Origin: a virus
UHGV virus genome: UHGV-2192570
DNA length: 21,366 bases
Strand: one strand, 5' to 3'
Shown here: piece after piece, positions 3,001-9,000 of the stretch
Position numbering within the stretch: position 1 is the first letter of the stretch
How the letters are laid out: each line of letters opens with the position of its first letter
Made by a program: the position numbers

Positions 3001-6000
3001 ATATCTGCCAGGCTATCACGAAAGCCGTGACGGGCTTAAAGCACTGGGCGCAGAACGTCACCATTACATCAACCTTGCCCGCACTGAAAATCGCTTCGCT
3101 GGGCTGGCTGTAGGCGAGCGTCAGAGCGCGGGAGAGCAACAGTTAGGCTTACTGATAGTCATGCAGAAAATCGAGCAGGCAGCATTTAACGAGGCGATAC
3201 AGAACGGCATGACACCGACCGAAGCGGTGCGGGAAGTTGCTCGCCGCATGGAGACGTTCGCCAGCCTGATGACGTCAGCGCCGTCTCTGGGGGTGAATCA
3301 TGCGTAATTATGATTTCGCCGCAATTATTCCGGTATCACCTGGCATTATTGGCGGATATGAAACGGGCATTGTCAGCGCACGCGCACTGCATAAAGCGCT
3401 CGGTGTAGGCCGTGATTTCACCAATTGGATTAAAGGGCGTATTGAGGAGTATGAATTTAAAAAGGGAATGAATTTTGAGGTTGTAGAAAATTTGAGCTCG
3501 CCAAATCCGGCGAGCGCAAAATCTCGCCAGCAGCTTGCTCATGATTACTTGCTCACCGTGAACATGGGTAAAGAACTGGCGATGGTCGAACGCACTGAAC
3601 AGGGCCGCGCAATTCGCCAGTACTTCATCAAATGTGAAGAAGAGCTACACAAGGCAGCGCCGGAACGTGCCGCAGCTTTGCGCCGTGAACTGAAAGCGCG
3701 TGTCACCGTTGCCAGTTTTTTTAAGCCTATGTGCGCTGCGCTGGAGTTGTACCGCGCAGAGCTGGGAAAAGAGACTCATCAACACCACTACACCACAGAA
3801 TCAAATATGCTGGCGCGTATCGTGCTGGGCGGCATGACGGCGAAACAATGGGCGCAGGCGAACGGCATCAAAGGAAAACCGCGTGACAGCATGAGCGTTA
3901 TGCAGCTTGAACACCTTTCCTACCTTGAGCAGAGCAATATCACGCTGATTGAGTTGGGTATGACTTACCAGCAGCGAAAAGCCGAATTAATCCGCCTTTC
4001 ACAGCGCTGGCTGGCCCGTCGCATGGGAGAGCATGAACATGCCTGACATCCTCAAACCTGCTGTCCGGTACATCGACACGGCGGATAAGTTCGCACTACT
4101 GAACATCAACCATGCGGATTACATGCGCCATATCGTGAGCCATTTCGCCGCTGAGCGCATGAAACACGTTAAGCAATACTTGGGGGAGGTTTTATCAAAT
4201 TATCGCGCTGGTGGCCCTGTACGGCGCGAATATCCGCATGATGCAGGAATGGCAGGCAAAACAAAGGCGACCACGAAAGGGTCGCCAGTGGAGATAAAGG
4301 AAATCAAGCGCTTTATCCACAATGCCATATCTGAAGCTGGCGGACAATATGCAGTTTACGACGAATGGCCCCTTGGTCCCGATGTTCGTATTTTCTTACG
4401 GCATGTACTTTTCAGAAAATTATCAAGTGCAAAAGCTTCAGGTGCTTCTCTGTGTTCCCGTGCCAGAGCGTTAAGTTCTTTACGTGTTAATTCTGTTGCT
4501 CTTGCCTGTTCGCGTGCAGCTTTCCGCTTTCGTTCATGTTCAGTTATACGGGCGCTGGTCAGTGTAACCATCATGGCAAAGGAGTTTTTTTTCTGGTCAT
4601 CCATCGTGTCTTCCTGCATAACAATACGCCGTGGTTCCTCACACTACGGTGCTGGTGGCTTTTATCCTTTGGGTTCTATACCGCGTTGCTGTAATTCTTT
4701 GCGGATTATTCGCTTTATCCAGGCTGCAAGAGAATCATCACCGTCCTGTTGTTGTGCTTTTTCCATCTTTTCCCGTAAGTCAGGATCTAAACGGAACTGG
4801 AACGGGGGATTACCACGCCTTTCGCTTTTGTGTATTGACACGTTAATTACACCTCATGTAGTGTGTTTATGTGTCTCTACACATTACATACACTCAATGC
4901 AAAAAACAACGCCCCGCAGTGCTGAAATACGTGCAGGGCGTCTAACCAAATCGCGATCAGGAGTAACGATTATGGCTGTCAGACAGCATACTCCACACTC
5001 TGTACACATACAAACAGCACACGAACCGCTGGCAGGTTGTCAGCCTGGCGGTCGGTTTTTAGTGGCTTTTAACCGCCGTGGGTATTTCTCGACAAAAGCC
5101 TCAAGGGCAAATCGTGTTGGCCTGGTGAGTGGCTGTGGATTAAGTAACAACCTCCTTTGCCGTTGTGCTTTTTCGCGCTGTCGCTCAAGTATGGATAATG
5201 CGATTTCCTGTAGCTCTTCATTTGTCATTGTCTGTACCTGTAAAGCAGTACGCCGTAACACACCACGCTACAGCGATGATGGTTTCTGCTGTTGTAATTT
5301 GTTGCGTTGGTTTTTTCTGCCACTGAGAAACACCTCAAGCGGTGGCGGTTCGCTGGTTTTTTCTGGCGGGGTTAATTTTTCTTGCCTGGTTTCAATGATG
5401 GCACGTATCAGTCGCTGGCGTTGTAGTGCGCTGATATTCGGGGTAACGGGCGAAAATCTGTGCTTACTCATACTGGATTCCGGTAATGCATTATGTCGTG
5501 ATGCCTCATATCACGGCGCTGGTTATTGTCTGGTACGTTGTCTTTCTTTCTGGTATCCATCCTTTCTGGAAGGATATGTGAATATTTTTCGCACAAACTT
5601 TTCTCGCAACACATCCGACCACTTAAGCAAAAAAGCGGCATATACTGAGGCTATCCCTTATAAAACGGGGATCGGGATTGGCCTCCCGCTGGAGTTAGAG
5701 GCGATACACGACGCGCCAGCGTCTTTTTTTGTATCGGCGCACACGCACACCTCAACAATGGTGGGCTGTATGGAACTTCCTTCGGGAAGGCTGGTTTCCT
5801 CTAACACCAGTAAGGCCAATTCCGTACAGTCTACCGCCAGCAAGATTGGCCTCTTGGGCGGTGGGTATAATCCCAAAGTCAGAGGAGCCTTTCACATGGC
5901 TGTATCCGCACGCCCTTACTTTGTCTGGCGCTTTATGCAGTGCCTGACAGACAGCATTGCAATATTCACCGTTACCGCTGCCACTGAGCGCGAAGCACGC

Positions 6001-9000
6001 GCCCAGCTGCCGCACGCACATCTTATTTTTGTCGCCCGTATCCGTCAGGAGGTGACTCATGCTTAAAACCTTCCGCGTCTTTTCCCGTGCTGTTAACAAG
6101 CGTGGCTATACCGTTGGCATCACGCAGAACGTGAAGGCCGAAAACGTCCAGGCTGCAATCAGCACAGTAATTAACAAATCAGCTAAAGCCGGTTTATCCG
6201 GCGTAATTATCCACGCAGTGACATGTATTCAGGATGAGGAGTAATTCATGTGTAATTTTTCCGATATGACTGTTGATGAAGCAGCAAAAAGCGCAATGCA
6301 GGCAGAACTTATTTGTTCTCTGATGATGGGTAACACAGGTGAAATGACTGAGGGTGAGATTGAGTCATTGCTCGCCCTGATTAAGCAGCTTACAGGTAAG
6401 GCTGGTAGCTGGCTGATTGCGGCATCGGGTGATATGCAATAAGGGAATAAATAACAGGATGAAATAAATACCAGCGAATTAAAGCGTTACATATCAGGAA
6501 ATAAAACGATGAAACGTAAATATTCTGGCTTAACTGCCAGTAGCAAAACTCACCCCGAATTTATGTGCGGGGATACTTATCGCAATGAATACGGTAGCCA
6601 CATGACGATGATCAGCAGAGGTAAGAAATGAAAAGCGCACCGAACTTAAAAAAACAGCCTCGAGGGAAAAAACACGCCGATACGGAAGTGATTATTTTCG
6701 CTGGCAGTGATGCGTGGGCGCACGCGAAACAGTGGCTGGAGCAGGACGGAAAACTTGCCGGAGATAATATACCGCCTGTCGTGCTGGCTGATGAGCAACT
6801 TAAAGATATTGGCAATCTGCAAATTGTACCCGACGGGCGCAAATCAGCGCGGATATACAAGGCCGGACACCTTGATCAGGTGATGGTCAAAGGCATAGGT
6901 CAGAAGCTGGCGGCGGCAGGCGTACAGGACGCAGACTATTACCCCGAAGGTATGCACCATAACGAGCGGCAGAACTGGCGTAACTATCTGGAGACTGAGC
7001 GCAAAAACATTTCTGACGGACTGGTTATTGAGCTGCCTGTAAAGAAAAAAACATCCGAACAATCAGAGGATGAATTAAAACCCCGCGTTGAATGCCGTCC
7101 TGATGGCGTTTACTGGGTTACGCCAAAGGTTGATAAGCAATCAGGCGAAATTATACGGCCTGAAACGTGGTTATGTGCTTCGGTTGAATTACTGGGCGCT
7201 GGTGTCATTGGTAACGAGCATTACCGCGTGATGCGCTGGACAGATTCGACAACAAATCGGCTTGTCACTATGGCCGTGCCTTGCTGCGGAATAGGCGACA
7301 GTGACGGCTGGCGGTTACTGAAAGCCAACGGGCTTAAAGTCACGACAAACGGAAAACACAGGATCCCCCTGGCTGACTGGATGCAGTTAGGCGGACAGCA
7401 TGAGGAATGGCACTTAAGCACGAAAGCTGGCTGGCACTTTGGCGCGTACATCATGCCGGACGGTACGGTTATCGGCGAATCTGACAAGCCCGTTTTGTTT
7501 ACCGGAAAAAGTGCTGCCATTAACGGTTATTCCGTGGCGGGTACGGTGGATAGCTGGCGCGACAGCGTGGCGCGGCTGGCTGGTGGTAATCCGTTCATGA
7601 TGCTGGGCATAGCGACGTCATTATCCGCACCATTAGTCGGGCTGGTCGGTGCTGATGGCTTTGGTGTGCATTTTTTCGAAAACTCCACAGCAGGTAAGAC
7701 CACAACACAAAGCGTGGCATCGAGTTTATGGGGTGATCCTGAAGCGCAGCGATTAACCTGGTACGGAACAGCGTTAGGCATTGCTAACGAGGCTGAAGCA
7801 CACAACCACGGGCTTTTACCACTGGATGAGATAGGACAGGCAGCAAGCGCCCGTGATGTGTACGTATCGGCTTATACGCTGTTTAACGGCTTCGGGAAAT
7901 TACAGGGGGCAAAAGACGGCGGAAACAGGGAGCTGAAAAGCTGGCGCACAGTCGCTATCAGCACCGGAGAAGTGGACATTGAAACATTCCTCAAAACCGA
8001 GGGGATAAAGGTAAAAGTGGGGCAGCTTGTCCGCCTGCTTAACGTGCCAATAGAGAAGGCCACGCAGTTACACGGATACGCGAACGGAAAGGATCACGCA
8101 GATGCATTGAAAGCAGCATGGAAAGAAAACCACGGGGCAGCGGGTCGTGAGTGGGTTAAATGGCTGGCAGCCCACCAGCAGGAGGCAAAGGATACGGTAA
8201 GGGAATGCCGCGAACGGTGGCGCAACCTGATACCGGAGAGCTACGGCGAGCAGGTCCACCGCGTGGGTGAACGTTTCGCCATACTGGAGGCCGCACTTGT
8301 GCTTTCCGGTCATGTAACAGGCTGGGCCGTGCAGGAATGCCGCGACGCGATACTGCACAACTTTAATGCCTGGGTGAAGGTGTTCGGTACGGGGAACAAG
8401 GAGCACAAGCAGATTATTGAACAGGCTGAGGCGTTTCTTGCGGCCTATGGGATGAGCAGGTTTGCCCCTGTCAATTATGACCCCGCCAGTCTGCCAATTC
8501 CTGAACTGTACGGCTACAGGGAAAGCGACGGGCGTTATGACGAACCTGTTTTGTTCTACGTGCTGCCGGATCCGTTCGGCTCACATGTGGCGAATGGATT
8601 TAACAAGGATGCCGTGGCAAAAGTTCTTCATGAAGCCGGAATGCTGAAAAGACCATCCAGCGGTCGTGGGTGGCAAATCAGGACACCACGGCTAAAACAC
8701 CTGAAAGGGGCGCGCCTGAGAGTGTACGGCCTTTTGCTGGCGCAGGACCACGACACGGAAAGCGATTAATCTCGCGTATAGGCGATGAAAAAATGTTGTC
8801 CCAGTTGTCCCACTACGGATTAATTAATTGATTTTACTAAAAATACAATAAAAAAAGTGGGACAACATTACAGCATTTTGGGACGACATCGGGGTATTTT
8901 GGGACGACATAGCGACATTTTGGGACGACACAACGAGCGTTAATTACCCTGGCTGGTAACTGGGACAACATAAAACCCCTCATGTTGTCCCAAAATCGGC

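Follow-up and report, generated by a model that had tools for sequence, protein, structure and literature searches.

A stop-free 2-kb reading frame antisense to four small genes in a P4-like satellite island: a frame perhaps kept for the sake of its translation

This article concerns one long open reading frame (ORF) in the virus genome UHGV-2192570, of which a stretch of 21,366 nucleotides (nt) was analysed; we call this whole stretch the window. Judged by its gene content (integrase, alpA, a Bro-type zone, primase and SSB, as in Gram-negative phage-inducible chromosomal islands, PICIs), the window is a PICI/P4-like satellite island. The long ORF occupies the + strand between antA and the replication genes, and its position is listed in Table 1 together with those of all other features. 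From stop to stop it comprises 691 codons (3991-6066), and across 4033-6063 its frame contains no stop codon, against 24 and 30 in the other two + frames. It overlaps antA by 14 nt, a Shine-Dalgarno sequence (GGGAGAG) lies just 5' of its start, and at its 3' end the stop codon reaches into the next + gene, which begins at 6059. The ORF is a composite, made up of the antA overlap, a stretch antisense to genes on the other strand, an isrK-like leader, a C4/CI RNA and a nested Icd/Kil-like gene.

Table 1. Features of the window (aa, amino acids; positions count from the first letter of the window)
Feature	Position	Strand	Evidence and remarks
Integrase	1-1254		Pfam match; inward-facing
int-alpA RNA motif	1299-1366		Rfam RF02996, 38.6 bits; between integrase and next ORF
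AlpA	2320-2523		Pfam match
Rha	2588-3307		Pfam match
AntA	3300-4046		Pfam match; stop codon 4044-4046
Eta-like long ORF	4033-6066	+	677 codons, ATG 4033 to TAA 6064-6066
Intrinsic terminator ending the leftward genes	4262-4286	-	GC-rich hairpin, -14.4 kcal/mol, then UUUGUUUUG
E1	4356-4604	-	82 aa from ATG 4604 (87 aa if ATG 4619); FALDNFLK motif at C-terminus
B1	4662-4841	-	59 aa; ribbon-helix-helix Arc-like regulator; PHROG 228 Arc-like repressor, E = 2.5e-6
Intrinsic terminator between two leftward gene pairs	4903-4940	-	hairpin, -20.2 kcal/mol, then UUGUUUUUUG
A1	5040-5228	-	62 aa, MTNEEL...FALEAFVEKYPRRLKATKNRPPG; annotated in relatives
F1	5268-5471	-	67 aa; natural stop is TAG 5268-5270
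Divergent control region	5472-5652		between leftward genes and isrK-like leader; stop-free in the frame of the long ORF
Candidate weak promoter TTGCGA-17-AATATT	5609-5581	-	predicted
Candidate promoter TATACT	5641-5646	+	predicted
isrK-like leader RNA	5653-5729	+	Rfam RF01394, 52.1 bits
Intrinsic terminator of the isrK-like leader	5710-5730	+	
C4/CI-type antisense immunity RNA	5754-5841	+	Rfam RF01695, 71.9 bits, E = 1.5e-12, gathering score 45
Second target box, seqC-like	5844-5853	+	GATTGGCCTC; complementary to C4 loop 5813-5824
Nested Icd/Kil-like gene	5896-6066	+	56 aa, same frame as the long ORF; NCBIfam NF033153
DUF927 primase	6628-8769		Pfam match
SSB	9455-9904		Pfam match

The comparisons below draw on 61 sequences, the window included. 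The relatives are nearly all from E. coli or Shigella, and some of the loci (numbered with an L) are repeat copies of one contig. Loci were picked either by the Ash/Icd end of the ORF or by a leftward gene, and the second route is independent of the + frame.

The initial annotation had described the frame at 4033-6066 as 677 stop-free codons with an implausible Cys/Ser/Arg-rich product, and both the ORF and stop counts and the analysis of the product bear this out. Residues 116-536 contain 6.9 % Cys, 14.5 % Ser, 10.5 % Arg and 1.4 % Glu, against 0.7 % Cys and 5.3 % Ser in control proteins of the window. AlphaFold, working from a shallow alignment, gives the 677-aa product a mean confidence (predicted local distance difference test, pLDDT) of 25.9, with 677 of 677 residues below 50. 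When the relatives are compared, the + frame shows no coding periodicity outside its last 56 codons. This applies also to the first ~107 codons (0.126/0.140/0.112 substitutions per + codon position), which corrects the view of the first ~115 residues as protein-like. A PHROG search with two + segments (nt 4033-5640) returned no match, and the Pfam/NCBIfam matches of the full ORF are confined to the RNA region and the icd part. Among the relatives, the length and content of the ORF are mosaic. Hence it seems that the amino-acid sequence of the + product is irrelevant, apart from its Icd/Kil end. A frameshifted or decayed + gene was also considered as an origin of the frame and was rejected, because the related ORFs are intact.

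About 1.1 kb of the long ORF (4356-5471) is antisense to four intact leftward genes. The underlying minus-strand ORFs (4356-4619, 4662-4841, 5040-5261 and 5268-5471) all share their third codon positions with the + ORF, and between 5471 and 5040 the minus frame contains one stop only, the TAG at 5268-5270. This agrees with the initial annotation, which had reported a wobble-sharing minus frame with several protein-like ORFs, two of them split by that TAG; all of them are present. Its minus-strand terminator at 4900-4940 was likewise recovered, with the limits given in Table 1, and is kept in the related spacers. The TTGACA element that it had placed at about 4835 does exist on the + strand (4835-4840), but a promoter scan found no -10 element matching it.

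Each of the four genes has counterparts elsewhere. E1 is annotated as a gene in a relative, and its FALDNFLK motif is common to paralogous cassettes. B1 reaches 20 bits with the YlcI/YnfO profile (NF041551), which is below the cut-off of 30; the family C cassette that stands in the place of B1 in relatives passes the same profile with 58-72 bits. A tblastn search with a YlcI/YnfO-type cassette against a phage collection gave no match. The A1 family was seen in E. coli and Shigella only, and AlphaFold gives the 62-aa product of A1 a pLDDT of 82.6 (shallow alignment). F1 is annotated as a separate 67-aa coding sequence in a relative. More generally, RefSeq annotates leftward genes on the minus strand in several relatives, and in related islands these genes recur as independent cassettes, in many combinations and orders. 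A profile scan of genome contigs with the family A alignment found two loci only, both of them remnants flanked by insertion sequences (IS).

A motif of the form F-A-L-E/D-x-F-L/V-K/E is found at the C-terminus of otherwise unrelated cassettes (families A, D, E, G and H); it is carried by leftward genes of the window and of L003, L004, L036 and L044. As a sequence feature, this motif suggests one paralogous family of small proteins. Relatives also preserve two further minus-strand ORFs in other frames, 4195-4347 (50 aa) and 5468-5641 (57 aa). Since the former coincides with the leftward terminator and 3' region and the latter with the divergent promoter region, both probably represent conserved non-coding DNA and not genes.

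Which of the two strands encodes protein in this middle part can be judged from the substitutions in the relatives. Counted by minus codon position, they follow the order p2<p1<p3 in every one of four gene families (overall 0.332 for p1, 0.266 for p2 and 0.464 for p3). A coding + frame would make minus p1 the lowest; therefore the order found points to the leftward strand. For the 5040-5228 family, the ratio of non-synonymous to synonymous substitution rates (dN/dS) is 0.3-0.5 in the minus frame versus 0.5-1.1 in the + frame. Purifying selection on amino acids, which in a functional antisense pair is expected of both frames, was found in the minus frame only. Given this periodicity and dN/dS, the Arc-like and YlcI matches, the RefSeq annotation, the pLDDT of A1 and the recurrence as cassettes, the leftward genes are the protein-coding strand in the middle part of the ORF. 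The periodicity scoring of both strands that the initial annotation had proposed thus singles out the minus frame as the constrained one. Its suggestion of convergent transcription is supported as well: opposing transcription is built in, because minus-strand genes with terminators of their own lie inside a + strand operon.

If protein is encoded on the minus strand, what keeps the + frame open? In this register, a + stop can come about solely through the minus-strand contexts NNY|TAN and NNT|CAN; the codons TTA, CTA and TCA do occur in the leftward genes. We shuffled synonymous codons within the four genes of the window, preserving both their proteins and their codon usage: 6.2 stops are expected in the + frame and none is observed (P = 5e-5). 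The same procedure applied to 12 control genes of the window gave observed numbers close to the expected ones (summed, about 111 vs 112). When leftward genes were reduced to 29 non-redundant clusters (1,922 codons; nucleotide identity no higher than 80 %), 23.8 +/- 3.8 stops were expected and 0 were observed. The rule behind this is strict. None of the 148 Gln/His (CAN) codons in these clusters follows a T-ending codon, where 20.6 % would be expected to do so (P ~ 1e-15), and none of the 16 Tyr (TAY) codons comes after one that ends in a pyrimidine. For the control genes of the window, the numbers are 50 of 220 CAN codons after NNT and 56 of 99 TAY codons after NNY. The third position before a CAN codon does change from gene to gene, but only between A, G and C, and T is never seen.

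The same avoidance extends to DNA that does not encode protein on the minus strand. Its 349 codons contain no stop; shuffling gave a mean of 16.1 and never 0 in 20,000 trials, and the other two + frames of this DNA hold 13 and 16 stops. The spacers between leftward genes occur in nine distinct lengths, and all nine are multiples of three. Throughout the 61 sequences, each leftward gene lies within an open + frame of 180-765 codons, the exceptions being three IS-flanked remnants (95 codons); four further divergent loci display the same pattern. Related islands thus carry intact homologous + ORFs, an outcome that the initial annotation had listed as one that would refute it. Where an insertion or deletion of 1 nt shifts the register, the two resulting long + ORFs overlap by 30-60 nt. 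Clearly, then, selection on synonymous sites and spacers keeps the + frame stop-free and in register. An orphan family A copy of 350 bp (L066, 3892-4240) lies in an unrelated chromosomal context, outside any island. In it a GCT|CAA context makes a stop in the + frame; it is the only copy seen with an antisense stop, a single anecdote that nevertheless agrees with expectation.

Downstream of the leftward genes, the long ORF enters an immunity region. The isrK-like leader is the counterpart of the P4 seqA region. Two boxes in it can pair with the C4 RNA, 5689-5701 with 5798-5810 (13 nt, 92 %) and 5673-5684 with the loop at 5813-5824 (12 nt, 92 %), and a repeat of one of the boxes, listed in Table 1 as the second target box, sits 43 nt 5' of the icd start. 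As far as complementarity tells, this layout follows the seqA/seqB/seqC logic of P4 immunity. Of the structured leader that the initial annotation had offered as one explanation for the whole frame, the 3' 400 nt stand, as isrK-like plus C4 structured RNA. A retron or another hidden RNA gene in the middle part was considered and rejected, since Rfam finds only isrK, C4 and int-alpA. Two tandem copies of C4 are present in many relatives (L003 at 3949-4036 and 4430-4517, also L004, L007-L009, L016, L028 and L036), in some cases separated by a c4-a1b1 target motif. The second tandem copy lies within a 154-aa 'Icd-like' coding sequence, a second nesting of the eta/kil kind. As to promoters, the sole sigma-70-like match in 2200-6700 is a weak one at 2228-2256 on the + strand (TTGAAA-17-AATAGT), just 5' of alpA, which on its sequence is a candidate for the promoter that would feed a long read-through transcript.

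The nested Icd/Kil-like gene has its own Shine-Dalgarno sequence (GAGGAG, 5882-5887) in front of its ATG at 5896. By + codon position, substitutions in this part amount to 0.039/0.075/0.145, the sole + coding signature in the long ORF. Its kinship with P4 Kil is based on the profile, because both proteins pass NF033153 (53.7 bits for the gene of the window and 76.1 for P4 Kil, with a cut-off of 25); pairwise BLASTP of the two gave no alignment. The sole Pfam match of the ORF, Phage_ASH (PF10554; 33.3 bits vs a gathering score of 26), covers residues 537-623, which correspond to nt 5641-5901. This stretch shows no sign of evolving as a protein: its substitutions by + position are 0.182/0.147/0.211, with no clear coding pattern. 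The Phage_ASH match falls on the isrK-like/C4 region also in P4 (L006, 8330-8704) and in a relative. From these positions, PF10554 appears to model a translated RNA locus and not a protein domain.

Several other explanations of the locus have to be weighed. Antisense frames can be long by chance, and the long ORF could be a passive shadow of four small genes whose antisense frame merely lacks stops. The K-12 gene ylcI, used as a control, is also stop-free in this frame, but it opens only 90 codons; moreover, it is one gene out of context and uninformative. The permutation and shuffle tests, the codon contexts, the in-register spacers and the recurrence in about 60 loci and 29 clusters all speak against chance, and the window alone already refutes it (P < 1e-4), so that we give this explanation practically no credit. 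The idea of the initial annotation that the minus-strand ORFs are fragments of one decayed gene fares no better. It is true that the four lie in one frame and that two of them are parted by a single TAG. However, the shared frame is accounted for by the constraint of the + ORF, and each of the four is intact and a gene in its own right. As cassettes that are either unrelated or paralogous to one another, they are found separately and in many orders; relatives annotate them separately, terminators stand between and after them, and they are under purifying selection. A single decayed gene is therefore extremely improbable in our opinion.

The main rival is a functional long 'Bro-network' protein. 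The + ORF would then be a genuine multi-module product (a 'Bro-network' or Ash-Icd fusion) and the leftward genes would be functional too, a case of true dual coding. This is the view implicit in public annotation and in PMC10111431. The frame is conserved open and has a good ribosome-binding site, the Phage_ASH match is above threshold, and databases hold hundreds of homologues of 374-684 aa named Icd-like or ash family, some of them fused to AntA. On the other hand, the Ash match sits on the isrK/C4 RNA region, the constrained frame is the leftward one, and + periodicity is missing even where nothing overlaps. The product is Cys/Ser/Arg-rich with a pLDDT of 25.9 and no residue above 50; PHROG is empty for nt 4033-5640, and the Pfam/NCBIfam matches touch only the RNA region and icd. 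Its length, 180-765 codons, tracks the cassette content, and 1-nt frameshifts are tolerated provided that two ORFs overlap. We consider dual coding unlikely, though it deserves to be taken seriously. Another proposal is that the frame stays open not to hold off Rho but on behalf of the nested Icd/Kil gene, either to deliver ribosomes to it when C4 blocks the icd start or to provide an extension that modulates Kil toxicity. In its favour, the ORF invariably finishes in an Icd-like gene or passes on to one; a C4 target box is found immediately 5' of the icd ribosome-binding site; and the icd frame of a P1-like phage likewise stays open across C4. Yet a short upstream ORF would suffice for this, and neither the additional 1.4 kb of open frame nor the unbroken chain of ORFs past icd to the primase is explained. 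In L001 and L002, moreover, the long ORF is in another frame than icd. We regard this proposal as distinctly unlikely.

In our opinion, the long ORF is probably selected for being translated and not for its product, and its translation would shield transcripts coming from the alpA side from Rho and from C4 immunity. Between alpA and the primase, the + strand of nearly all relatives forms a chain of overlapping or abutting ORFs, with a largest gap of usually no more than 94 nt, and the long ORFs have ATG starts and good Shine-Dalgarno sequences. The following scenario, modelled on the P4 experiments of Forti et al. 1999 as summarized in PMC10111431, could be envisaged. In this island lineage, small leftward genes of the regulator type lie between alpA and the immunity region, and an eta-like frame would have been stretched antisense across them, in the register that shares third codon positions. 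Upon induction, transcription would enter from the alpA side, with ribosomes trailing RNA polymerase for 2 kb. These ribosomes would block Rho-dependent termination on an otherwise untranslated antisense RNA of 1.6 kb, and with them in place neither the hairpin of the isrK terminator (5710-5730) nor the pairings of seqA/seqC with C4 would form. Because of this, the replication genes would be expressed despite C4 immunity. Transcripts from the internal isrK promoter would have no such ribosome cover and would stay under C4 control. A collision of this transcription with that of the leftward genes may, we speculate, act as a further switch. The C>G-richest windows of the + RNA, 5581-5660 just ahead of isrK and a stretch over icd, lie where P4 has its Rho site (timm), which is only suggestive. 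As for the stronger statement, that the 2-kb frame is kept purely for translation, as a ribosome 'escort' past an opposing operon, two terminators, an RNA immunity system and Rho, the considerations for and against it seem to us evenly balanced.

Several points weigh against selection for translation alone. Selection for an open frame is equally expected from a functional long protein, and the case against such a product is made of negative evidence, namely the missing periodicity, the low pLDDT (from a shallow alignment) and the tolerance of frameshifts. The relatives share ancestry and conserved spacers, so that the loci are not fully independent replicates. In one relative (L004), a 423-nt stretch 5' of the long ORF is free of ORFs. 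Finally, neither for the isrK leader nor for the leftward genes did promoter scans reveal a convincing sigma-70 promoter.

Two components are already in print, namely the eta/kil principle and the finding that PICI 'Bro' genes contain CI/seqA homologues. In the literature we found no description of an ORF that runs antisense through a real set of leftward genes, of a strict synonymous-site rule that maintains such an ORF, or of the 'Ash' domain as an RNA region with the segments upstream of it as antisense translations. If the frame is indeed kept purely for translation, the cost of the open frame is borne at the synonymous sites of at least eight leftward gene families, in which no T-ending codon may precede Gln or His. 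It would follow that hundreds of 'Icd-like' and 'Ash family' entries of 400-680 aa are not functional proteins, that the Pfam Ash family is translated RNA, and that part of the reported PICI 'Bro-network domain swapping' is an exchange of cassettes on the other strand. The analysis would account for a class of odd but widely annotated E. coli 'proteins', show which strand encodes protein and flag PF10554 as sitting on an RNA gene. It would provide a remarkably clear natural example in which selection favours translation over product, with an absolute codon-context rule in overlapping genes, and would open transcription-translation coupling and the policing of antisense RNA by Rho to experiment in a mobile element. 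It also suggests a route by which PICI-type satellites could escape from their own C4 immunity when induced, and a way for leftward regulators and a rightward read-through path to share the same DNA.

The surroundings of the long ORF are those of a common type of island. The gene order is int, alpA, rha, antA, the long ORF, small genes, the DUF927 primase, ssb and proQ (ProQ/FinO), with two small + genes between the long ORF and the primase. Of 5,426 complete genomes, 792 match the region 3000-7000, and related islands are common in E. coli chromosomes; the exact mosaic of the window is found in none of the 792. The RefSeq annotation of the related region, made by the Prokaryotic Genome Annotation Pipeline (L001-L005), is uneven: some genomes receive a + strand 'ash family protein' of 450 aa, others small leftward genes and a 'pseudo' ash fragment. 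Towards the other end of the window, two adjacent + genes at 15958-17401 (204 and 262 aa, G+C content 0.34-0.37) have no Pfam match; they may be cargo, e.g. a defence hotspot. A full-length Phage_cap_E major capsid gene is located near the far end, at 17787-18863 on the minus strand. The island may thus be a capsid-forming PICI, or it may adjoin or lie inside a prophage late region, like the helper-embedded PICIs of PMC10111431.

Among known systems, the closest one is satellite phage P4. In its genome (X51522) one ORF, 8168-8812 (214 codons when counted from its first ATG), spans an isrK-like element (8615-8692) and the CI/C4 RNA (8420-8507) and has the 65-aa Kil at its end. Three ATGs of this ORF, giving 199, 198 and 197 aa, overlap the stop codon of orf88/vis, a homologue of AlpA. 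P4 is reportedly endowed with nested eta and kil genes, and this layout of ATGs agrees. In architecture, as read from sequence, the long ORF of the window is an eta/kil homologue. Both start at the stop codon of the preceding + gene (vis in P4, antA here), both span an immunity promoter (a predicted one in the window), a seqA/isrK-like leader and the CI/C4 RNA, and in both an Icd-family Kil gene with its own start is nested in frame at the 3' end. According to the summary in PMC10111431, P4 transcripts from the upstream late promoter are kept from Rho-dependent termination by the translation of eta. Unlike the P4 ORF, that of the window is about three times longer (677 codons vs 197-214), and its additional 1.4 kb, antisense through four leftward genes and two leftward terminators, is absent from P4. 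Its coupling is to antA, rha and antA separate it from alpA, and the replication gene here is a DUF927 primase. In relatives, the distance from alpA to the start of the long ORF is 10-60 nt.

Mageeney et al. 2023 (PMC10111431) described 'Bro network' genes of Gram-negative PICIs and helper-embedded PICIs, reported matches to C4 and isrK (the CI/seqA homologue) inside PICI Bro genes, and cited P4 eta as a Bro member coupled to alpA. Their islands and ours are of the same type, with the same order of zones (integration, Bro, replication). They treat the long ORFs as domain-swapping proteins, with 144 'b' segments derived from peptides that flank matches including Phage_ASH. In contrast, the Ash match in the Phage_ASH-containing ORFs analysed here is the isrK/C4 RNA region, and the stretches 5' of it are antisense translations of leftward cassettes. 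The immI region of P1/P7 (c4 RNA, icd, ant) resembles the window in having C4 RNA 5' of an Icd gene, together with target boxes, and the icd frame of a P1-like phage can be followed back across C4 without a stop (138 codons); unlike the window, immI lacks both a long extension and genes antisense to the frame. According to Hershko-Shalev et al. 2016 (PMC4825925), read-through of a leader terminator in the IsrK/orf45/anrP region of Gifsy-1 yields a downstream mRNA, and translation of the first cistron decides on downstream expression. The likeness is limited to an isrK-type leader with a terminator; the Gifsy-1 mechanism, unlike the one considered here, is activation in trans by a short RNA. 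Finally, antisense overlapping genes of E. coli O157:H7, e.g. ano (PMC5960689; PMC9927249), are also ORFs opposite annotated genes. Those are short ORFs, proposed to encode protein, and each lies inside one larger gene, whereas in the window one long ORF crosses several small genes, spacers, terminators and RNAs, and its signature is the avoidance of stops without amino-acid constraint.

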